A stretch of DNA of 22,661 bases. Origin: an uncultured Fibrobacterota bacterium (GTDB lineage Bacteria > Fibrobacterota > OXYB2-FULL-49-7 > JAEUSG01). Positions 3,235 through 18,907 of this stretch are shown piece by piece; within the stretch, counting starts at the first letter, position 1, and every line of letters begins with the position of its first letter. Below the pieces are notes generated by a model. The model was not told where the DNA came from and did not search any database. It saw only the letters and a program-made list of their open reading frames with translations. The stretch is from positions 1-22,661 of the forward strand of contig CAZPWS010000051.1 of NCBI GenBank assembly GCA_964590225.1. Direction: 5' to 3'. The position numbers and the translations under genes were made by a program.

Positions 3235-3273
3235 CCAATATGACCATATAGCCATTATTGATTGGGATGTAAT

Positions 3274-3609
3274 ATGAAAAAGACGATTACAGATTCAAAA
3301 AACGGTACAAAGTATAAAGAACGGGCAAACATCTTTAAGGCGTTGGCCCACCCAACAAGGCTTAGGATATTAGATGAATTGTCAAAAGGTGAAAAATGTG
3401 TTTGCGAACTTATAGGTCTCGGTGATAGCGATCAATCAACAATATCCAAACACCTTGCATTAATGAAATCAGCCAAGATTCTTGAATCTGAACGAAGAGG
3501 TACGCAGGTTATATATAGGCTGAAAATGACCTGTGTTGTCATGTTTCTTTCGTGTATTGACAACTCAATAATTGCCGCTGCTAAAGAGAAAATCAAGGGG
3601 CTTTCATGA
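3274..3609 (+). CDS. arsR: ArsR/SmtB-family metalloregulatory repressor (copy 1)
   Basis: 111 aa from ATG 3274; the track ORF starts at an upstream TTG at 3262. Winged-HTH signature HPTRLRILDEL...STISKHLALMKSAKIL. A CVC pair (C42, C44) sits at the alpha3 position used for As(III) binding in R773-type ArsR. The stop overlaps the next start (ATGA at 3606-3609). Confidence 0.85.
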   Translation: MKKTITDSKNGTKYKERANIFKALAHPTRLRILDELSKGEKCVCELIGLGDSDQSTISKHLALMKSAKILESERRGTQVIYRLKMTCVVMFLSCIDNSIIAAAKEKIKGLS

Positions 3610-4904
3610 GTATAAAAGATGAAATCAAGCCATTTTTCTGGCTAATTGGTGGCTTTATTCTCGCATACTATTTACCCTTAGGCACAACCCGTTTTGACAA
3701 TGCAATATTCGAAGCATTTCATCTTGTAAAGTGGTATGCCCGTGAACATGTTCTGCTCTGCCTTGTTCCAGCTTTTTTTATAGCTGGAGCCATTAGTGTT
3801 TTTGTAAGCCAAGCATCCGTGATGAAATATCTGGGTGCAAAAGCGAATAAAGTTCTTGCTTATGGAGTTGCTTCTGTTTCCGGAACGGTACTAGCCGTTT
3901 GTTCATGCACGGTGTTACCACTATTTGCAGGTATATACAAAATGGGAGCAGGAATTGGTCCGGCCACTGCTTTTCTTTACTCTGGCCCAGCTATTAATGT
4001 TCTAGCCATTGTAATGACAGCACGAATCTTAGGTGTGGAAATGGGAATCGCAAGAGCTGTTGGCGCTATTGGCTTTGGTTTGATTATTGGGCTCGTAATG
4101 CAGTTTATTTTCAGAGAAGATGAAGCAAAAAAGATTGCCGTACAAAAAGAGATGCCGGATCCTGAAGGTGTCAGACCTCTTTCCCACACAATCATCTATT
4201 TCGCTTCCATGATAGCCATTCTTGTGTTTGCTAATTTCGGTAAAACCGAATCGACGACAGGAGTTTGGCATGTAATTTATTTAAGCAAATGGATACTGAC
4301 CTCTGTCGCAGGAGTTGTGTTCGCCTTTACCCTTGTTGCTATTATTAAAATAAAATTGTGGAAAGTAATTTTATCTTCATTGGTAGTTGCTTTTCTGGGC
4401 TTAAAATTCGGCAATAATCCTCTTGTTCCTTTTACCATTGGCGCACTTATGCTTTCGTGGATGACTGCAACAGATAAAAATGAAGGCAGTGACTGGTTTT
4501 CTTCCACATGGGGATTTATAAAGCAGATAACACCTCTCTTAATTATGGGTGTTGCGGCTGCCGGCTTCTTTTTGGGGCGCGTAGGTAATGAAGGGGTTAT
4601 TCCATCAGAATGGATTGCAAAACTTGTTGGGGGAAATTCACTGCCTGCTAACTTTTTTGCTTCGATTGTAGGTGCGTTCATGTATCTCGCAACACTCACA
4701 GAAGTTCCGATCATTCAGGGACTCATGGGAAGTGGAATGGGAAAGGGACCGGCTTTAGCGCTTCTATTGGCAGGGCCTGCGCTATCGCTTCAAAGTATGC
4801 TAGTACTCAGCACGATAATGGGTTGGAAAAAGACAGCCGTTTATATCACCCTTGTTGTGGTAATGGCAACGACATCCGGTTTGATGTATGGAAATTTATT
4901 TTAG
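3606..4904 (+). CDS. Polytopic permease of the ArsP_1/DUF318 type (ArsP-like putative organoarsenical or metalloid permease)
   Basis: 432 aa with many hydrophobic segments. Motif AVCSCTVLPLFAGIYKMGAGIGPATAFLYSGPAINVLAI is typical of the predicted-permease family. That family is commonly found next to ArsR and a small thioredoxin. Translationally coupled to arsR. Confidence 0.65.
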   Translation: MSIKDEIKPFFWLIGGFILAYYLPLGTTRFDNAIFEAFHLVKWYAREHVLLCLVPAFFIAGAISVFVSQASVMKYLGAKANKVLAYGVASVSGTVLAVCSCTVLPLFAGIYKMGAGIGPATAFLYSGPAINVLAIVMTARILGVEMGIARAVGAIGFGLIIGLVMQFIFREDEAKKIAVQKEMPDPEGVRPLSHTIIYFASMIAILVFANFGKTESTTGVWHVIYLSKWILTSVAGVVFAFTLVAIIKIKLWKVILSSLVVAFLGLKFGNNPLVPFTIGALMLSWMTATDKNEGSDWFSSTWGFIKQITPLLIMGVAAAGFFLGRVGNEGVIPSEWIAKLVGGNSLPANFFASIVGAFMYLATLTEVPIIQGLMGSGMGKGPALALLLAGPALSLQSMLVLSTIMGWKKTAVYITLVVVMATTSGLMYGNLF

Positions 4905-4913
4905 CTCACTATT

Positions 4914-4990
4914 AGACTCTGTATCGAAAAGATATACGCTTTTTGCGGATATCTTTGACGATTACAGAGTCTTATTTCGGCCTTAGCCGA
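4914..4990 (+). promoter_or_regulatory. Extended imperfect stem-loop (about 24 bp in 59 nt) followed by a 5-bp hairpin, just upstream of the thioredoxin RBS; function unknown
   Basis: AGACTCTGTA (4914-4923) pairs with TACAGAGTCT (4963-4972). Inner helices are TCG/CGA, AAAGATAT (4928-4935)/ATATCTTT (4949-4956), and CGC-TTTTT-GCG at the apex. A second hairpin TCGGC-CTTA-GCCGA (4977-4990) is followed by TTT, AGGAGA and the ATG at 5005. Confidence 0.45.
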
Positions 4991-5004
4991 TTTAGGAGAA
5001 TATC

Positions 5005-5238
5005 ATGAAGAGAATACAAGTACTTGGAACGGGATGTCCAAAATGCAAAAAACTTGCTGAAGCAGCTGACACTGCTGCAAAGGAACTTGGGTTAGAGTAT
5101 GAACTTGTAAAGGTTACGGATATTAACCAGATTATGGATTTTGGTGTTATGATGACACCGGCACTGGCTGTTGATGGGACTGTTAAAGTTGTTGGTCGGG
5201 TTCCTACAGTTGAAGAAATAAAAGGATTAATTAATTAG
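5005..5238 (+). CDS. Small cytoplasmic thioredoxin-fold protein (redox-active disulfide protein 2 / Thioredoxin_3 type); possible ArsE equivalent
   Basis: 77 aa. N-terminal MKRIQVLGTGCPKCKKL with a CPKC redox motif. No signal peptide. Strong RBS AGGAGA at 4994-4999. Confidence 0.8.
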   Translation: MKRIQVLGTGCPKCKKLAEAADTAAKELGLEYELVKVTDINQIMDFGVMMTPALAVDGTVKVVGRVPTVEEIKGLIN

Positions 5239-5262
5239 CTTTTTTAAAATAGGGAGAATGCG

Positions 5263-5772
5263 ATGGATCATAAAACAAAAAAAATGGCAAAAAGTATTCT
5301 GATAATTGTGGTTGTTGCATTTGTTTTGGCTGGCATTGCCGCTGGAACCGCAAAAAGTTCAGCAACTAAAATCCCAGAAGACACCACAGCAGCAAAAAAA
5401 GATACTATTGCGACAAAGGTTTCCGAACCTCTTGCTGCTTCACAAACTATTGTCTATTACTTTATGACTACATACCGTTGCAGATCATGCAATTTTATTG
5501 AGAACACTACAAAAGCTGCAATCGAACAAAATTTTGCAGACCAAATTAAAAACGGTAGTATGGTATTTAAAACAATCAATGTTGATGAAAATCAGAACAA
5601 GCACTTTGTTAATAAATATGGTTTATACACAAAAACAGTTGTTGTTTCTTCTGTAAAAAATGGCGAAGAATTAAAGTGGAAGAATCTTGATCAGATCTGG
5701 AACCTCATTGGTCAGGATGAATCATTTAAGGTTTATATTGCTAACGAAATTAAAGCCTTTCTGAAATTGTGA
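5263..5772 (+). CDS. arsF: Membrane-anchored thioredoxin-fold-like CxxC protein, predicted to face the periplasm; resembles proteins currently named nitrophenyl-compound nitroreductase subunit ArsF family
   Basis: 169 aa. Lys-rich N-terminus (MDHKTKKMAKS) followed by one TM segment (ILIIVVVAFVLAGIAAGTA) gives an N-in topology by the positive-inside rule. CRSC motif in YYFMTTYRCRSCNF. RBS GGGAGA. The ArsF name comes from my memory of annotation usage, not from a search. Confidence 0.5.
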   Translation: MDHKTKKMAKSILIIVVVAFVLAGIAAGTAKSSATKIPEDTTAAKKDTIATKVSEPLAASQTIVYYFMTTYRCRSCNFIENTTKAAIEQNFADQIKNGSMVFKTINVDENQNKHFVNKYGLYTKTVVVSSVKNGEELKWKNLDQIWNLIGQDESFKVYIANEIKAFLKL

Positions 5773-5781
5773 AATAAGATA

Positions 5782-6471
5782 ATGGAGAAATTTTTTCTGG
5801 ATTTCTGGATTGCTCTATGGCTTGGTATTACAACTTCAATAAGTCCATGTCCTCTTGCAACTAACATAGCAGCAATTTCATATGTAGGCAGACGCGCCGG
5901 TACAGTGCGCGGAATAATTACCGCTGGACTCCTTTATACGCTTGGAAGAATGATTTCTTATTTGGCAGTCGGTTTTATAGTTACAAAAAGTCTTCTATCG
6001 ATACCTCAGCTTTCCATGTTTCTGCAAACACATATGAATCAGATAATTGGTCCGTTGCTGATTGTTGTCGGTCTTGTACTGTTTGGATTCATAGACTTCA
6101 GCACAGGTGGAGGAGGTTTTACAGAAAAACTCAAGGCAAAAGTAGATAAAGCCGGAGTTTGGGGAGCCTTGATTCTTGGTTTATTATTCGCGCTAACATT
6201 CTGTCCTGTTTCTGCCGCTCTCTTTTTTGGAAGTTTGATTCCCATAGCTGTCCGCCACTCTTCGACATTTATAATCCCATCAATTTATGGCATAGGTACG
6301 GCCGTTCCAGTTCTGGTGTTTGCAATAATCATGGCTTTTAGTGTTAGGGCGGTAGGTAAGGTTTTCAGCAAAATCACTTCCATAGAAATATGGATTCGGA
6401 GGATTATGGCTCTGGTTTTCATCGGTGCCGGTGTTTATATGACACTTGTTCATACGCTGAAATTGCTGTGA
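5782..6471 (+). CDS. arsG: CcdA/DsbD-transmembrane-domain-like membrane protein (DsbD_2 type); resembles proteins currently named aromatic aminobenzylarsenical efflux permease ArsG family
   Basis: 229 aa with about 6 hydrophobic segments. Two membrane-embedded Cys-Pro motifs, SISPC23PLATN and LTFCPVSAALFFG, are the hallmark of CcdA-type thiol-disulfide transporters. The ArsG name is from memory. Confidence 0.5.
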   Translation: MEKFFLDFWIALWLGITTSISPCPLATNIAAISYVGRRAGTVRGIITAGLLYTLGRMISYLAVGFIVTKSLLSIPQLSMFLQTHMNQIIGPLLIVVGLVLFGFIDFSTGGGGFTEKLKAKVDKAGVWGALILGLLFALTFCPVSAALFFGSLIPIAVRHSSTFIIPSIYGIGTAVPVLVFAIIMAFSVRAVGKVFSKITSIEIWIRRIMALVFIGAGVYMTLVHTLKLL

Positions 6472-6488: not shown

Positions 6489-6517
6489 TTGGTAGAGATA
6501 TTTTTATTTATTATATT
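6489..6517 (+). promoter_or_regulatory. Candidate promoter of the second ars operon (TTGGTA-N17-TATATT)
   Basis: TTGGTA at 6489-6494, a 17-nt spacer, then TATATT at 6512-6517. It lies in the only sizeable gap (6472-6560) inside the ars island, 44 nt upstream of the arsM ATG. Confidence 0.4.
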
Positions 6518-6535
6518 TCGTTATGTGGCGAAATA
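6514..6535. promoter_or_regulatory. Perfect 7-bp inverted repeat TATTTCG-N8-CGAAATA; candidate ArsR operator
   Basis: TATTTCG at 6514-6520 and CGAAATA at 6529-6535. The repeat overlaps the putative -10 and the expected transcription start. Confidence 0.4.
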
Positions 6536-6560
6536 AGAACATATAAATCCGGAGAATTTC

Positions 6561-7364
6561 ATGAACCCAATCTCAGTAAAATCAATGGTTAAAAAAAAAT
6601 ACGCTTCAATTGCAACAGGAGGGGGCAGCGGGTGTTGTTCTTCCGGCTGTTGCGGCAGTGGTGAGGTTGACTATTCAATATTTAGCGATGATTATTCCAA
6701 ACTGGATGGCTATGTCCCTGAAGCCGACCTTAACCTTGGCTGCGGAATGCCAACAAAATATGCTGCCATAAAAGAGGGACAGACTGTAGTCGATCTTGGA
6801 TCGGGGGCCGGTAACGACTGTTTTGTGGTTCGCAGAATTGTCGGCGAGACAGGAAATGTCATTGGTCTTGATATGACCGAAGAAATGGTGACCAAGGCAA
6901 AAGAAAACAATAGGAAAATGGGTTATACAAATGTCGATTTTCGCTTAGGTGACATAGAGGACATGCCTATTGAATCCAATATTGCTGATGTTGTAGTCAG
7001 CAACTGCGTGTTAAATCTTGTACCAGATAAAGGAAAAGCTTTTTCTGAAATTTTGCGCATACTCAAGCCTGGTGGCCATTTTTGCGTCTCTGACATCGTA
7101 ATTAAGGGTGAGATGCCGGAGAAACTAAAACGAGTTGCTGAACTGTACGCAGGCTGTATTTCAGGAGCACTTGCAAAGAGTGAATATCTTGATATAATTA
7201 GTTCCACAGGTTTTGAGAGTGTTAGCATCGAAAGTGAAAAAGAATACCATATACCAGATGAAGTATTAGCCGAATACATGGATATAAATGCGTTGCAGAA
7301 TTTTCGAAAGAGTAATGTTAAAGTACTAAGCATAACGGTTGTTGCAAAAAAACCGAAGGGATGA
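6561..7364 (+). CDS. arsM: Arsenite S-adenosylmethionine methyltransferase
   Basis: 267 aa. Cys-rich N-terminus GGGSGCCSSGCCGSG. Conserved LNLGCGMP. SAM-binding motif VVDLGSGAGNDCF. Also VVSNCVLNLVPDK and conserved LYAGCISGA. RBS GGAGA at 6551-6555. Confidence 0.9.
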   Translation: MNPISVKSMVKKKYASIATGGGSGCCSSGCCGSGEVDYSIFSDDYSKLDGYVPEADLNLGCGMPTKYAAIKEGQTVVDLGSGAGNDCFVVRRIVGETGNVIGLDMTEEMVTKAKENNRKMGYTNVDFRLGDIEDMPIESNIADVVVSNCVLNLVPDKGKAFSEILRILKPGGHFCVSDIVIKGEMPEKLKRVAELYAGCISGALAKSEYLDIISSTGFESVSIESEKEYHIPDEVLAEYMDINALQNFRKSNVKVLSITVVAKKPKG

Positions 7365-7723
7365 TTATGAAAGAAATTGTTGCCATTGCCAAAGCTTTAT
7401 CTGATGAAAATCGTGTCAAGGCTCTATTGCTTTTATGTAAGCGGGAAGTCTGCGTTTGTCAGATTGTTGACTTTTTAAAGTTGGCGCCTTCCACTGTCTC
7501 GAAACATATGAGCATTCTTAAAGCTGCCGGCCTTGTGGAGAGCCGAAAGGAAGAGCGATGGATGTATTATCGACATGCTCAGAAAGGAGTTTCTGCTGTA
7601 GTTGACGAGGCTTTGTCATGGCTATCAAAAAACTTAAACTGTGATATTAACAAAAAAGAATGCTGCGGCATTCAAATACCGAGAAGCATATTGGAGAAAA
7701 AATGTATAACAAAGAAAAACTAA
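7361..7723 (+). CDS. arsR: ArsR/SmtB-family metalloregulatory repressor (copy 2)
   Basis: 120 aa. The ATG overlaps the arsM stop (ATGA at 7361-7364). LLLC26KREVC31VC33QIVDFL followed by the HTH segment STVSKHMSILKAAGLV. Extra C-terminal cysteines at C94, C101, C102 and C115. Confidence 0.85.
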   Translation: MIMKEIVAIAKALSDENRVKALLLLCKREVCVCQIVDFLKLAPSTVSKHMSILKAAGLVESRKEERWMYYRHAQKGVSAVVDEALSWLSKNLNCDINKKECCGIQIPRSILEKKCITKKN

Positions 7724-8145
7724 AGATATTGTTTCTTTGTACAGGAAATTCCTGTAGAAGCCAAATGGCTGAAGGGTGGGCACGATACTTAAAAGGGGAT
7801 ATTATTGAAGCATATTCTGCGGGAATTGAAACACACGGTCTTAACCCAAATGCAGTGAAAATAATGGCTGAAGCTGGGGTTGATATTTCAAACCATGCAT
7901 CAAAAAATGTTCGGGATTTAATGCACATTAAATTCGATTATGTAGTAACTGTTTGTGGCCACGCCAACGAAAACTGCCCTTTTTTTCCCGGAAAAGCAAA
8001 AATTGTTCATAAAGGATTTGATGACCCACCGCAACTTGCAAATAACTCAAGAAATGAAGAGGAAGCGTTAAATCACTATAGACGGATAAGAGATGAGATT
8101 AGAGATTTTATAAAGCAGCTCCCAGAAAATCTTTCCACTTTATAG
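7702..8145 (+). CDS. arsC: Arsenate reductase, LMW-PTPase family, thioredoxin-coupled type
   Basis: 147 aa from ATG 7702; the track ORF begins at 7660 inside arsR. P-loop LFLCTGNSCRSQMAEGW (CX5R). A second Cys pair in TVCGHANENCPFF is spaced like C82/C89 of pI258 ArsC. Overlaps the arsR 3' end by 22 nt. Confidence 0.9.
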   Translation: MYNKEKLKILFLCTGNSCRSQMAEGWARYLKGDIIEAYSAGIETHGLNPNAVKIMAEAGVDISNHASKNVRDLMHIKFDYVVTVCGHANENCPFFPGKAKIVHKGFDDPPQLANNSRNEEEALNHYRRIRDEIRDFIKQLPENLSTL

Positions 8146-8162
8146 TTTACAAAGGATTAACT

Positions 8163-9242
8163 ATGGAAAACAATAAAAATATTGGCATAAATTTTTTTGA
8201 AAAATATCTCACTGTTTGGGTCATACTTTGTATGATTACAGGGGTCTTAATTGGTAAATTTTTACCAGCCATACCTGCCTTTCTTTCAAATTTTGAATAT
8301 GCGCGAGTCTCTATTCCCATCGCCATCCTCATCTGGTTAATGATTTATCCAATGATGATGAAAGTTGATTTCGCAAGTATTAAAGATGTTGGCAAGAATC
8401 CAAAAGGATTGTTTTTAACATGGATCATAAACTGGTTGGTTAAGCCATTTACAATGTATGCGATTGCATGGTTTTTTTTCTACATTGTATTCAAAAACAA
8501 TATCTCCCCCGACCTTGCAAAGAGCTATTTAGCCGGAGCTATTCTGCTTGGCGCTGCACCATGTACGGCTATGGTATTTGTCTGGAGCCATTTAACAAGA
8601 GGCAACCCTGCTTATACGGTAGTACAGGTTGCAACAAACGATATTATAATTCTTGTAGCATTCACACCAATAGTCGGATTTCTTCTTGGTATTAGCAACA
8701 TTGTTATTCCATGGAACACTTTACTCCTGTCTATGGTTCTTTTTGTTGTTTTTCCTCTTACAGGAGGCATAGTCACAAGATTATTGATTGTAAAAAATAA
8801 AGGCGAGGAGTACTTTACAAAATCATTTATACCAAAGTTCAGCAGTGTAACAATCGGGGGGTTGCTTCTTACGCTGATTCTGATCTTTTCGTTTCAGGGA
8901 GAAATTATTCTTAATAAACCTCTCCACATATTCATTATTGCTATCCCGTTAATAATCCAGACCGTTTTAATATTCTTTATTGCCTATTTGGTAGCCCGAA
9001 AACTAAGACTGCCACATAATATCGCAGCTCCTGCCGGAATGATCGGCGCGTCAAACTTTTTTGAACTTGCTGTTGCTGTTGCAATCGCACTTTTTGGAGC
9101 AACCTCCCCAGCTGTGCTTGCCACAATTGTTGGGGTTCTGGTAGAAGTTCCTATAATGTTAATGCTGGTACAAGTAGCAAATAAAACGGCGTATCTTAGT
9201 ACTCAAAACTCCACCAGTACCAAGCATTTAGACCTACACTGA
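8163..9242 (+). CDS. acr3: ACR3-family arsenite efflux transporter
   Basis: 359 aa. Motifs LMIYPMMMKVDF, the conserved Cys context LGAAPCTAMVFVWS, and the conserved Glu in GVLVEVPIMLML. RBS AAGGA. Confidence 0.9.
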   Translation: MENNKNIGINFFEKYLTVWVILCMITGVLIGKFLPAIPAFLSNFEYARVSIPIAILIWLMIYPMMMKVDFASIKDVGKNPKGLFLTWIINWLVKPFTMYAIAWFFFYIVFKNNISPDLAKSYLAGAILLGAAPCTAMVFVWSHLTRGNPAYTVVQVATNDIIILVAFTPIVGFLLGISNIVIPWNTLLLSMVLFVVFPLTGGIVTRLLIVKNKGEEYFTKSFIPKFSSVTIGGLLLTLILIFSFQGEIILNKPLHIFIIAIPLIIQTVLIFFIAYLVARKLRLPHNIAAPAGMIGASNFFELAVAVAIALFGATSPAVLATIVGVLVEVPIMLMLVQVANKTAYLSTQNSTSTKHLDLH

Positions 9243-9955: not shown

Positions 9956-10447
9956 TTAAGTATGATGATAAGCCATCTTCAGCGCCATCGCAACTTCAGG
10001 ACAGGTAAGCGGGTTTGTATATTTAGTGCAATTAATACAGCCCAAATAAATTTTATTGTAAAGATGTTTTTTTGAAATTCTTCTGAATCCAAGTTTGCTG
10101 AAAAATTTTGGCGAAAAGGTAAGAAGAATTATTTTTGTTGGTCGCAACTCCCTGATATGTTCAATAACCCGTTCTACAAGAGCTCGCCCAATGCCATGTT
10201 TATGAAGGCCTTTTTTTACGCATAAAGATACAATTTCAATTATATGCTCCGTCTCTTTGCCAACTTCTGGCAAAACCTTGTAAGCCACAACTCCGACAAT
10301 TTCTTTTTCTTCTCTATAAACAAAAAAACGGTCGATATTTATTGTTATATCCGAAATAGATCTCGGAAGCACCTCAACCGGATACTCTTTTATCAAATGA
10401 TAAATATCAAAAACATCCTTGAAAAATGCCTTCTCAACAGCACCCAT
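9956..10447 (-). CDS. GNAT-family N-acetyltransferase with a Cys-rich C-terminal tail
   Basis: 163 aa. Acetyl-CoA-binding-type motif VKKGLHKHGIGRALVERV. C-terminal tail GCINCTKYTNPLTCPE. RBS GAGGGGG lies directly after the recO stop. Confidence 0.75.
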   Translation of the reverse strand: MGAVEKAFFKDVFDIYHLIKEYPVEVLPRSISDITINIDRFFVYREEKEIVGVVAYKVLPEVGKETEHIIEIVSLCVKKGLHKHGIGRALVERVIEHIRELRPTKIILLTFSPKFFSKLGFRRISKKHLYNKIYLGCINCTKYTNPLTCPEVAMALKMAYHHT

Positions 10448-16475: not shown

Positions 16476-17039
16476 TTATTCTTTTTTTGCCTCGACTATC
16501 GATTCCACCTGAAAAACAAATAAATCAACATCATCACTTTTATAACTATCGGAGGAAAGACCTGCCTTTTGAGTACAGAGTATGGATAAAAAGGTATCGA
16601 TATCCCACCCAGTTTCGATGGCTACCTGCGGCAGAAAAACACCACTTCGTTGCCCTTTCCTTATCCAAACTCCATCAATGCCAAGATTTATCTCTTTGTA
16701 TGAAATTATTTTCTGCATTGGAGTGAGAATTGATATTTCAATAACAACATCTCCAAGCTCGCTTCTTGTAATCTTTTTAAAACGGTAGTCATTAAAAGCG
16801 GCCGCTTTAGCCATTTCCGCTACTGCCACATAAAGCGGATCGGAAGCAACCATTTGTCCTATGCAGCCACGAAGATTATTATTAAGCTTAAGCGTGACAA
16901 ATACAGCACGGCGCTCTCTCAGTTTTGGATTGGCTGGTTCTAAGCAAGGACATATACAGGATTTATCCAATGTTGAGGCAATTGACGCCCGTGCAATGTC
17001 AATAAGATATTTTTTTTCGTCATCAGTATATGTACTCAA
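16476..17039 (-). CDS. AMMECR1-domain protein (AmmeMemoRadiSam system protein A)
   Basis: 187 aa. TTG start with RBS AAGGGGA. Hallmark motif LRGCIG in NNLRGCIGQMVA. Lies immediately downstream of the Memo and radical SAM genes. Confidence 0.85.
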   Translation of the reverse strand: MSTYTDDEKKYLIDIARASIASTLDKSCICPCLEPANPKLRERRAVFVTLKLNNNLRGCIGQMVASDPLYVAVAEMAKAAAFNDYRFKKITRSELGDVVIEISILTPMQKIISYKEINLGIDGVWIRKGQRSGVFLPQVAIETGWDIDTFLSILCTQKAGLSSDSYKSDDVDLFVFQVESIVEAKKE

Positions 17040-17051
17040 GATAGTTCCCCT

Positions 17052-17888
17052 TTAGTTAAAAACCATGGCCGAATATCCCACTACACCATTAGCACGACTA
17101 TCCGGAACCGTGTCACCGCTTGTTTCATACATTATAAGCCTTCCATGCTCTTTATCAAGTTCGTTTAGAGCGGTGAAAAAAGCTATAAGAGCATAATAAG
17201 CACAAAGTTCGCATTCCCGCGATTCCAACAGTTGAAATAACATATCATAATCGCCACTTACTATAGAGCTTATAGCTTTCCGGTCCATCCGGAGAGCCTC
17301 ATCGTATTTATGATAATGAGACATATCTGTACTTACCACAATCAGTGTATCCATCCATTTTGTTTTAACTGCTTCAGCTATGGATTTTCCGAGTGCGACA
17401 AGAGCACTATGCTCATTTGTAGCAGTTAATATTGGTACAATTTGAGGCTGGTCCATATAATAGCGAATAAATGGAAATAGTGCTTCAAGCGAATGCTCTT
17501 TTTCGTGAATCTTTTTATCGAATTTCGCTTCTGTATTTTTCATAAGTAAAAAGTTAGCGATTTCCAAGTCTTGCTCAAGACTGCCAATGGGTGTATCCAC
17601 CTTTTCCCAGTCGGAAAAAGCGATTGTTCCATCAAGGTACTTGTGGCTTGTTCCAAGAAGTATAATCTTATCAATTTTTTTTCCACCAACAGCCTTAAAA
17701 CCAGAAGCTGCTGTTCTGCCGCTATACGCGTAACCGGCGTGCGGGACCATAAGCCCAAAAGGATTATCTATTTTATCCACCACAACAGCGGTATTGTCAA
17801 GCACATTAAGCGTGGCAAGAAGCTCATCTCTTTCGGAAGGATACCACAAACCACTTACCGCACATTTTCTTATGCTCTCTTTTCCCAT
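17052..17888 (-). CDS. Memo-like protein (AmmeMemoRadiSam system protein B)
   Basis: 278 aa from ATG 17888, preceded by AAGGAG; the track ORF starts at GTG 17921. Hallmark MVPHAGYAYSG. Additional His/Asp/Cys ligand-type positions (STDMSHYH, ECELCAY). Confidence 0.85.
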   Translation of the reverse strand: MGKESIRKCAVSGLWYPSERDELLATLNVLDNTAVVVDKIDNPFGLMVPHAGYAYSGRTAASGFKAVGGKKIDKIILLGTSHKYLDGTIAFSDWEKVDTPIGSLEQDLEIANFLLMKNTEAKFDKKIHEKEHSLEALFPFIRYYMDQPQIVPILTATNEHSALVALGKSIAEAVKTKWMDTLIVVSTDMSHYHKYDEALRMDRKAISSIVSGDYDMLFQLLESRECELCAYYALIAFFTALNELDKEHGRLIMYETSGDTVPDSRANGVVGYSAMVFN

Positions 17889-18907
17889 TTTCCGTATATC
17901 TCCTTTCCACAATTTCTGCACTTCCCGTCAACCATACTAATTGACTCTATACAATATCCCGATCTTGATACAGATGTAGATAAGCAGCGCGGACAGACTG
18001 TATTATCGTACTCAGAATTATGCATGTTTCCCGCATAAACAAAATTCATCCCCCTTTCTTTTGCCCTGTTGCAAATAGAGAGCACAAGTTCTGGAGGAGT
18101 CGGCTTATGGCCAAGAAGCTTAAATGAAGGGAAAAAACGGGAAAAGTGCAAAGGAACATCCACACCAAGATTTTTAATAACCCACTCAATCAATGCATCA
18201 ATTTCACCAATATCATCGTTCACTTGAGGTATGATAAGGTTCGTAATTTCCATGTGAATTTGTCGCTTCTTTATACTTAATAAAGTATCAAGTACCGGCC
18301 TCAATGAGCCGCCGGTATATTCATGATAAAAGGCTTCGGAAAATCCTTTGAGATCAATATTGGCAGCATCGATAAAAGGAGCAAGCTCCGTAAAAGGGGC
18401 AGGGTTTATAAATCCATTACTTACGAGAACTGTTAATAAGCCATTCCGTTTCGCTTCCACTGCGGTCTCAAGCACCATTTCAAATGAAACTATTGGTTCA
18501 CTATAAGTAAACGATATGCTTTGGCATCTATTTTTAAGTGCCTTATTGACCAATTCCATAGCGGATACTTTGTGTGCAAGAATTTCACCTGAATAGACCT
18601 GCGAAATTGAGCTGTTCTGACAAAACAGACACTTTAGATTACAACCAGCTGCACCCAAAGAGAGCGTTTTACTTCCAGGTAAAAAATGAAATAGTGGTTT
18701 TTTTTCAATTGGATCAATGTTTAACGCTACTACTTCATTATGTGTGGCCGCATAGAGATTTCCTGAGCAATTGATTCTTGCGCCGCACAAACCTCTTTTA
18801 CCTTCAGATATCCTGCACCCGTGCGGACAAAGAGTACAGATAACTGTTGAATTCTCTCCTTTTTCAAAATAGTTAGCCTGTTTCATATTACTTACAATAA
18901 AATACAT
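17870..18907 (-). CDS. AmmeMemoRadiSam system radical SAM enzyme (PflA-like activase family)
   Basis: 345 aa; an alternative ATG lies at 18886. N-terminal CTLCPHGC...GLCGAR. Radical SAM cluster motif GCNLKCLFCQN. C-terminal zinc-ribbon-like CPRC...CRNC. The 3' end overlaps the Memo gene by 19 nt, or 52 nt if the GTG start is used. Confidence 0.85.
   Translation of the reverse strand: MYFIVSNMKQANYFEKGENSTVICTLCPHGCRISEGKRGLCGARINCSGNLYAATHNEVVALNIDPIEKKPLFHFLPGSKTLSLGAAGCNLKCLFCQNSSISQVYSGEILAHKVSAMELVNKALKNRCQSISFTYSEPIVSFEMVLETAVEAKRNGLLTVLVSNGFINPAPFTELAPFIDAANIDLKGFSEAFYHEYTGGSLRPVLDTLLSIKKRQIHMEITNLIIPQVNDDIGEIDALIEWVIKNLGVDVPLHFSRFFPSFKLLGHKPTPPELVLSICNRAKERGMNFVYAGNMHNSEYDNTVCPRCLSTSVSRSGYCIESISMVDGKCRNCGKEIYGKWEKRA

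Follow-up and report, generated by a model that had tools for sequence, protein, structure and literature searches.

The arsEFG genes of an uncultured Fibrobacterota bacterium as a candidate cysteine relay linked to an ArsP-family permease

Introduction

The arsE, arsF and arsG genes analysed here are carried by a 22,661-nucleotide (nt) stretch of DNA from an uncultured Fibrobacterota bacterium (contig CAZPWS010000051.1 of assembly GCA_964590225.1, forward strand; the whole stretch is called the window below). The closest described system is that of Shewanella putrefaciens 200, for which the name ArsEFG was introduced in 2019 by Chen, Zhang and Rosen. In their study, trivalent roxarsone and nitarsone reportedly have the nitro group reduced by ArsEF, and ArsG reportedly exports the amino products. 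In NCBIfam, ArsF accordingly bears the name “nitrophenyl compound nitroreductase subunit” and ArsG the name “aromatic aminobenzylarsenical efflux permease”, labels that spread automatically to thousands of genomes. The trio had already been noted by Castillo and Saier (2010), who discussed a flow of electrons across the membrane and thought it “less likely”. Such a flow is the business of the CcdA/DsbD relays (TrxA-CcdA-ResA/CcmG/TlpA; SoxV-SoxW; ScsB-ScsC), which share with ArsEFG a cytoplasmic thioredoxin, a six-helix protein with Cys-Pro motifs in transmembrane segments (TM) 1 and 4, and an exported CxxC protein of thioredoxin fold. A looser likeness exists to the Mer system (MerP, MerT and the N-terminal domain of MerA), in which a thiophilic element is handled by cysteine pairs located within the membrane and on either side of it. 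The proteins are not homologous, however, and Mer serves import, not export.

The locus is a typical ArsEFG member and the system is already known. Gene order (E-F-G) and ars context are those of S. putrefaciens 200, the three proteins score above the TIGR00412, NF040494 and NF040495 cut-offs, with matches far beyond chance in the Pfam and NCBIfam scans, and no feature of the sequence marks the locus as special. The difference is one of interpretation: a CcdA-type relay working with a permease that has a Cys-Ser-Cys (CSC) motif, as against a nitroreductase plus a pump. Fold, orientation and gene neighbours fit a permease-linked cysteine relay better than the published assignment. An earlier note, made from the letters of this DNA only, had given the name ArsEFG, which the family models confirm, and had proposed that the triad may form a transmembrane thiol relay. 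That proposal agrees in part with the folds, the orientation and the neighbouring genes found here; the type of acceptor it assumed and the triad as the functional unit have to be given up, and the idea is not new. Four points are added: ArsF lacks the cis-proline, ArsF and ArsG form an apparently obligate pair, the CSC permease regularly joins the trio as a fourth member, and one cassette has a canonical thioredoxin and CcdA instead of ArsF and ArsG. Together they bring the mechanistic disagreement with present annotations into the open, in a form that can be tested. All statements on topology and structure below are predictions.

The ArsE, ArsF and ArsG Proteins

ArsE, ArsF and ArsG are encoded by three successive open reading frames (ORFs) of the + strand, located between the gene of an ArsP_1 (PF03773) permease and arsM (Table 1). 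The ORF coordinates, protein lengths and motifs given in the earlier note were all borne out in the ORF list of the window. The first protein, ArsE, has a CPKC motif at residues 11–14 and a cis-proline at P52, and a signal sequence is absent. Its score for TIGR00412 (MTH895 type) greatly exceeds the curated cut-off of 62 bits, the structure of MtH895 is matched in the PDB (1ILO, E 6.9e-18), and all 73 relatives possess C11, C14 and P52. On these sequence grounds ArsE is classed as a cytoplasmic mini-thioredoxin of the MTH895 type.

ArsG carries the motifs SPCP (residues 21–24) and FCPV (140–143). It scores far above the cut-off of 200 bits of the ArsG equivalog model NF040495 and reaches 53.4 bits for the Pfam domain DsbD_2 (gathering threshold 24.9), while some of its close homologues match PF02683. 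P22, C23, P24, C141 and P142 are invariant among 62 ArsG homologues. In the structural model, six transmembrane helices are predicted, and the breaks in TM1 (P22-C23-P24) and TM4 (C141-P142) fall exactly at the cysteines. The sole real structural match found by Foldseek is CcdA (5VKV), which aligns over the full length with a probability of 1.00 and a TM-score of 0.55/0.56. Profile comparison of ArsG with a canonical CcdA (PF02683) by hhalign gave a probability of 91.8%, and both ArsG cysteines are aligned with the redox cysteines of CcdA; each of TM1 and TM4 thus contributes one proline-flanked cysteine that corresponds to a catalytic residue. Lysines and arginines are concentrated in loops 1, 3 and 5, from which an N-out/C-out orientation is predicted, as in DsbD-beta. 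The six helices can be described, with moderate confidence, as a 3+3 repeat with the N-terminus out and the CcdA fold, and ArsG is, as judged from this model, a six-helix membrane protein of the CcdA/DsbD type. It differs from the known relay proteins in matching DsbD_2 rather than DsbD_TM and in having about 25% identity to canonical CcdA in the hhalign alignment. The DsbD family has been placed in the LysE superfamily together with exporters of heavy metals and amino acids (PMC4608589), and annotation pipelines label some ArsG relatives as TauE or LysE-type exporters. The view that none of the three proteins has a typical transporter signature was therefore overstated: the modelled fold would suit an exporter (LysE superfamily) as well as an electron carrier (CcdA), and a role in transport is possible as far as the fold goes.

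ArsF has a lysine-rich N-terminus (MDHKTKKMAK), a single hydrophobic segment at about residues 11–27 and the CRSC motif at 73–76. The ArsF model NF040494 covers residues 64–165 with a score well above its cut-off of 60 bits. No Pfam family matched ArsF even at E-values up to 1, models of the AhpC-TSA, Redoxin and Thioredoxin_8 type included; a minority of its relatives gave sub-threshold matches to the thioredoxin clan (Thioredoxin_2 in 20 of 118). Sequence searches of the PDB with ArsF and ArsG and with their profiles returned nothing meaningful. The ArsF family comprises 3,120 clusters at 50% identity. All 159 relatives sampled have the CxxC motif and 153 of them an N-terminal hydrophobic segment; in the alignment of 118 sequences, C73 is kept in 118 and C76 in 117. 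The six cysteines which the earlier note had singled out in the trio are all conserved. The AlphaFold2 model of ArsF, computed with the 118-sequence alignment, has a mean predicted local distance difference test score (pLDDT) of 89.8, with values of about 97–99 over the domain. It consists of a helix at residues 4–27 (signal or anchor), a flexible linker and a beta-alpha-beta-alpha-beta-beta-alpha domain at 60–168 whose first helix is opened by C73 and C76. Foldseek comparison of this model with the PDB yielded thioredoxins almost throughout: the best matches are all thioredoxins, and no flavoprotein is among the matches. The flanks of the anchor have a net charge of +2.9 on the N-side versus -0.3 on the C-side, and among 156 relatives the N-side value is the higher one in 145. 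On the positive-inside rule, the prediction is that the CxxC domain is outside the membrane, as had been supposed, and that ArsF is an exported or anchored protein of thioredoxin fold with its CxxC at the start of helix 1. A lipobox-like motif is found in 25 ArsF relatives.

The earlier note had taken ArsF for an acceptor of the ResA/TlpA/CcmG type. The cis-proline loop of these reductases is missing. The profile alignment of ArsF with E. coli thioredoxin stops two residues before the cis-proline, and its extension sets Pro76 of thioredoxin against T125 of ArsF. In the 118 sequences this position is occupied by Ser (89), Ala (14), Thr (10), Gln (3), His (1) or Met (1) and never by Pro; no proline is found anywhere between residues 120 and 126. 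A thioredoxin-fold atlas finds that, over the fold class as a whole, conservation is stronger for the cis-proline than for the CxxC motif. Because the cis-proline never occurs, ArsF is best described, from its alignment, as a distinct family of thioredoxin fold and not as a member of the ResA/TlpA/CcmG group. Arg72, directly before Cys73, is invariant in the family, and little or no variation is seen at E80, N106, N112, H114, W139 and W146. As stated in PMC2757866 and PMC2665069, in passages that both cite Su et al. (2007), the cis-proline keeps metals off the CxxC active sites of thioredoxins. The active site of ArsF looks permissive for a metal or metalloid, and ArsF may bind a metalloid. 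An iron-sulfur (Fe-S) cluster, an idea raised by the absent cis-proline, was judged unlikely, as the protein has no twin-arginine motif and is apparently Sec-exported.

Several variants of ArsF were encountered among its relatives. Lipoprotein signals are present in P0158, P0174 and P0210. In P0174 (L095:5001-5810) a long cysteine-rich region of CP repeats (16 Cys) precedes the ArsF domain, and the locus has the order arsR-acr3-arsC-permease-[P0174]-Trx_3-[163 aa]-DsbD_2 (Trx_3 denotes Thioredoxin_3; aa, amino acids). Some ArsF proteins contain two ArsF domains in tandem, each with its own CxxC, and some loci have two adjoining arsF genes before arsG (P0131 and P0132; L047, L059 and L079).

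Synteny of the Cassette

Gene neighbourhoods were compared in 80 ArsG loci from GTDB genomes, the best-scoring 80 of 574, a sample that leans toward closer relatives. The scan was seeded with ArsG, the ArsF alignment being too variable for this use, and the loci were scored with profiles of the window proteins. They span Fibrobacterota, Zixibacteria, Planctomycetota, Ignavibacteria, Acidobacteriota, Myxococcota, Nitrospirota, Chloroflexota, Bipolaricaulota, Omnitrophota and others. ArsG identity ranges from 48 to 81% over the 80 loci, and from 48 to 58% across the more than 15 phyla, mostly uncultured anaerobes. In 78 of the 80 loci, from more than 15 phyla, arsF stands immediately 5′ of arsG, mostly with an overlap of 4 nt or 1 nt. 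Upstream of arsG, where the region is visible, are found arsE (63/73), a PF03773 permease (56/69) and an ArsR gene (52/66); arsC, acr3 or arsM occur within 8 kb in 23 of 41 fully visible loci. A median of 15.5 nt separates arsE from the permease gene before it. Look-ups centred on ArsF recovered the same cassette. The CSC motif of the permease is present in 53 of 56 relatives and C52 is also conserved. CSC, at times replaced by Sec-Ser-Cys, is a hallmark common to the SaoE and SO_0444 metal exporters (bioRxiv 10.1101/2022.07.06.499078).

The genes stay together when their order changes: arsR-F-G-E-permease-arsC-acr3 in Prevotella, arsR-E-F-G-permease in Fulvitalea and, in L094, an F-G fusion followed by arsR-permease-E. 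The fusion protein (P0186, L094:1195-2373) is a single 392-aa polypeptide made of a signal sequence, an ArsF domain and ArsG; arsR, permease and Trx_3 genes come next. Extra genes are inserted in some cassettes, either between the permease gene and arsE (L007, L016, L034, L079) or between arsE and arsF (L015, L032, L053, L096). One of them codes for a protein of about 410 aa that is polytopic, bears the motifs GDLCGSS and GGC and by eye looks like the YeeE/YedE sulfur-transport family; the other encodes a protein of about 125–140 aa, in L096 a Pfam DGC-domain protein.

Plasmid records differ sharply in their content of these genes, an ArsE-like thioredoxin being carried by 150 of them and a true ArsG by two. 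In the plasmid contexts sampled, Trx_3 adjoins a PF03773 permease in 8 of 10, and ArsF and ArsG are absent there. Five of these eight pairs are located directly behind arsR, and seven are without arsC in the stretch inspected. On a Sulfuricella plasmid, the Trx_3 gene stands directly 5′ of arsC. An arsR-PF03773 permease-Trx_3 module (Trx_3 is also named redox-active disulfide protein 2), to which positions 3262–5238 of the window correspond, recurs on plasmids of Citrobacter, Acinetobacter, Rhodobacter, Cereibacter, Pseudosulfitobacter and Chlorohelix. Most such modules are without ArsF and ArsG; that of the window is extended by the ArsF-ArsG pair. As arsR and the permease gene co-occur with the trio, and as ArsE-like thioredoxins mostly partner the permease, the conserved unit appears to be a five-gene cassette of arsR, CSC permease and arsE extended by arsF-arsG, and not the triad alone as formerly assumed. 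Within it, judging from gene order and overlaps, ArsF and ArsG are an obligate and translationally coupled pair.

One plasmid cassette has a different extension. In Cereibacter azotoformans pORIO3 (L088, 2143–6751) the genes code for ArsR, permease, Trx_3, a rhodanese, a thioredoxin with a signal peptide, CcdA, a CDF transporter and DsbB. The thioredoxin (PF00085) has CAAC and the cis-proline, and the CcdA is a canonical PF02683 protein. These two, with the rhodanese gene lying between them and Trx_3, occupy the position that corresponds to ArsF and ArsG. Rhodanese, OsmC, DUF2703 and MBL-fold genes are seen 3′ of permease-Trx_3 pairs on other plasmids too, which hints at a wider tie of these modules to sulfur or thiol stress.

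Proposed Function and Alternatives

The reading that we prefer, at even chances, is that ArsE, ArsF and ArsG form a relay in the style of DsbD/CcdA, with three cysteine pairs that link the two sides of the cytoplasmic membrane, within an ArsR-controlled five-gene cassette that includes the CSC-motif ArsP-family permease. Cytoplasmic ArsE, with its CPKC and cis-proline, would reduce Cys23/Cys141 of ArsG from the inside. The CcdA-like ArsG would present this pair alternately to both sides of the membrane and hand the reducing equivalents to the CRSC of ArsF, which would be exported and either tethered or released at the outer face. ArsF would in this manner be kept as a dithiol in an oxidising compartment, where it could bind and handle a trivalent (organo)arsenical expelled by the permease or repair thiols that such a compound has attacked. 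The folds, predicted topologies, cysteine conservation and patterns of co-inheritance and pairing were computed; the direction of flow, electrons rather than arsenic as the cargo, and the final substrate are what we infer from them. The order ArsE to ArsG to ArsF is proposed because of the folds, the topology, the conserved cysteines, the coupling of F with G and the Cereibacter replacement. The tie to the permease, which most plausibly gives the relay its purpose, is suggested because the four genes remain together though their order is permuted. That ArsF would be kept reduced for the handling of arsenicals is suggested because it is without the cis-proline that bars metals from thioredoxin active sites. 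ArsEFG would then differ from the classical relays not only in its acceptor, which has no Pfam family and no cis-proline loop, but also in having its own thioredoxin and in being co-inherited with an ArsP-family permease under ArsR.

Several observations weigh against this relay. The ArsG model has a pLDDT of 66, a moderate confidence, and the E-value of its Foldseek match to CcdA is weak (0.027). ArsF lacks the loop that all classical relay acceptors carry. ArsE is absent in about 10 of the 73 visible loci and elsewhere pairs with the permease without ArsF and ArsG; it is therefore a putative dedicated donor. The ArsF-ArsG fusion is a singleton on one 4.4-kb Logan contig that might be a frameshift artefact, and the Cereibacter replacement is a single example. 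Finally, the 2019 paper of Chen, Zhang and Rosen, the sole experimental work known on the family, reportedly described a phenotype for arsG, along with nitro reduction by ArsEF and efflux by ArsG.

A more far-reaching version is possible but doubtful. It takes ArsE, ArsF, ArsG and the CSC permease as one ancient, ArsR-controlled, four-protein envelope system in which the permease would expel a natural thiol-reactive arsenical (e.g., methylarsenite or arsenite) while the CcdA-like relay would keep the cis-proline-less ArsF reduced for capture or for repair of damage; the “nitroreductase plus efflux pump” assignment would then reflect a side effect of heterologous expression. Should a relay serving an ArsP-family exporter prove true, the annotations now attached to ArsF and ArsG are misleading, synthetic poultry drugs drop out as the native substrate, and a thiol-based branch outside the cytoplasm is added to arsenic resistance, much like the Scs (copper) and Sox (sulfur) relays.

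The chief rival reading is that the cysteine pairs pass on the arsenical itself, following a Mer-like logic. ArsE would act as a chaperone in the cytoplasm, Cys23/Cys141 of ArsG would carry R-As(III) by alternating access and ArsF would receive it outside. We regard this as rather unlikely, although several properties of ArsF speak for it: the cis-proline that prevents metal binding by CxxC thiolates never occurs, the invariant Arg72 lies beside Cys73, H114, N106, N112 and W146 are conserved, and P0174 combines a lipoprotein signal with its cysteine-rich CP-repeat extension. The kinship of the DsbD family to heavy-metal exporters in the LysE superfamily points the same way, and the scheme would reconcile the published permease role, retained in the NCBIfam name of ArsG, with the CcdA architecture. 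Against it, the cassette already has an export route in its separate and highly conserved CSC permease, the corresponding place in the Cereibacter cassette is taken by a thioredoxin (with cis-proline) and a CcdA that are canonical for electron relays, and the cis-proline of ArsE, kept in every relative, argues against ArsE as a metal chaperone.

Taken literally, the published model has ArsE and ArsF acting together as the nitroreductase of Rox(III) and Nit(III), with the amino forms as products, and ArsG as a conventional efflux permease for these products. The Shewanella arsEFG genes expressed in E. coli reportedly gave amino products and resistance. All three window proteins pass the curated NCBIfam models named after that work, the genes are situated in an ars island beside arsM, arsC and acr3, and more than half of the fully visible loci have such a neighbour. 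The model nevertheless appears distinctly unlikely. No family match of the nitroreductase or flavodoxin-like type (NfsA/NfsB) was obtained for the three proteins in Pfam or NCBIfam, no flavin or nitroreductase fold was seen, in agreement with the earlier note, and no Fe-S fold either; the folds are those of a thioredoxin (ArsE, close to MtH895), a thioredoxin (ArsF) and CcdA (ArsG, close to 5VKV). ArsE is predicted to be inside the membrane and ArsF outside, so that they cannot form one soluble enzyme, and obligate coupling ties ArsF to ArsG, not to ArsE. As synthetic drugs of the 20th century, roxarsone and nitarsone cannot be the native substrates of a cassette that spans more than 15 phyla, mostly of uncultured anaerobes, at 48–58% ArsG identity. 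E. coli carries its own nitroreductases, and the reported conversion could for this reason be indirect.

The earlier note's other suggestion, that ArsE is simply the dedicated thioredoxin of the downstream thioredoxin-coupled ArsC (which would make ArsF and ArsG unrelated passengers), is highly improbable: the ArsC is closest to the thioredoxin-coupled pI258 type (155 bits, below the TIGR02691 cut-off of 174.3), such a role was proposed for the trio by Castillo and Saier (2010) and the Sulfuricella plasmid has Trx_3 next to arsC, but 24 of the 40 fully visible loci with ArsE are without ArsC within 8 kb, arsE closely follows the permease, and most of the sampled plasmid permease-Trx_3 pairs are likewise without arsC in the stretch inspected.

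Other Features of the Window

Table 1. Position of the ars genes and of other features in the window.
Feature	Position	Strand	Evidence and remarks
ArsR1, ArsR/SmtB repressor	3262–3609	+	HTH_5 E 9.8e-11; NF033788 87 bits; opens the conserved cassette
ArsP-family permease	3606–4904	+	PF03773 ArsP_1 E 1.1e-67; C52, C99-S100-C101
Nested hairpin, permease-arsE spacer	4914–4972	+	RNA fold of 4905–4990
ArsE, 77 aa	5005–5238	+	Thioredoxin_3 E 4.9e-28; TIGR00412 112.5 bits
ArsF, 169 aa	5263–5772	+	NF040494 108.3 bits
ArsG, 229 aa	5782–6471	+	DsbD_2 E 4.1e-14; NF040495 281.2 bits
Promoter-like sequence and inverted repeat	6489–6545	+	TTGGTA, 17 nt, TATATT; then ATTTCG-N8-CGAAAT
arsM	6561–7364	+	NF008823 338 bits, above cut-off
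arsR2	7361–7723	+	NF033788 83 bits, above cut-off
arsC, thioredoxin type	7660–8145	+	Pfam LMWPc E 2.2e-20; TIGR02691 and NF010053 strong, below cut-off
acr3	8163–9242	+	TIGR00832 385 bits, above cut-off
ORF, 654 aa	1232–3196	+	no Pfam or NCBIfam match
ORF, 239 aa	9196–9915	-	no Pfam or NCBIfam match
GNAT protein	9956–10447		ArsN model 44.5 bits, cut-off 125
ORF, 294 aa	13302–14186	-	weak LB_053-family match only
AMMECR1, Memo-like and radical SAM genes	16476–18907	-	adjoin one another

The Pfam searches that the earlier note had outlined for the trio gave the expected families for ArsE (Thioredoxin_3) and ArsG (DsbD_2; Table 1). The spacer between the permease gene and arsE contains a perfect 10-bp inverted repeat (AGACTCTGTA / TACAGAGTCT) around a second hairpin. 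The RNA of positions 4905–4990 folds with -36.7 kcal/mol, which corresponds to a z-score of -9.0; 200 shuffled sequences all fold less well. A strong U-run is absent 3′ of the hairpin. Elsewhere in the window the 10-nt arm is not repeated exactly; the one remaining match, at 16574–16583, has one mismatch and is within chance. A scan with Rfam gave no match for the hairpin or elsewhere in the window. The structure is not conserved in L001, where the equivalent spacer is only 5 nt long.

Upstream of arsM, a promoter-like sequence is followed by a short inverted repeat that may serve ArsR2 as an operator. From this arrangement, arsM-arsR2-arsC-acr3 may be transcribed as a unit of its own, apart from the arsR1-permease-EFG cassette. 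The promoter and terminator scan of the whole window was at chance level, with 18 promoter-like sites versus 18.5 expected, and gave no operon boundaries. The two repressors differ in their cysteines. ArsR1 has a CVC pair at residues 46–48 (C46, C48) with no third cysteine nearby and two further conserved ones, C91 and C98, for which reason its sensing site seems atypical; among 58 relatives Cys46 is kept in 54, Cys48 in 44, and Cys91 and Cys98 in 51 each. ArsR2 has VCVC and a cluster of cysteines at its C-terminus. The longest arsC ORF shares 64 nt with arsR2, and the family match begins at residue 19–23; the actual start is probably the Met codon at about 7702. Its NF010053 score is 153 bits, below the cut-off of 215.

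The 239-aa ORF directly after acr3 is on the opposite strand. The GNAT protein was considered as ArsN and rejected on its score. The remainder of the window has a housekeeping character (aminotransferase, RecO, FtsX with an M23 peptidase, AMMECR1/Memo/radical SAM, subtilase, FlgM), and the closest relatives are from Fibrobacterota metagenome bins. The adjoining AMMECR1, Memo-like and radical SAM genes are a known conserved trio without an assigned function.

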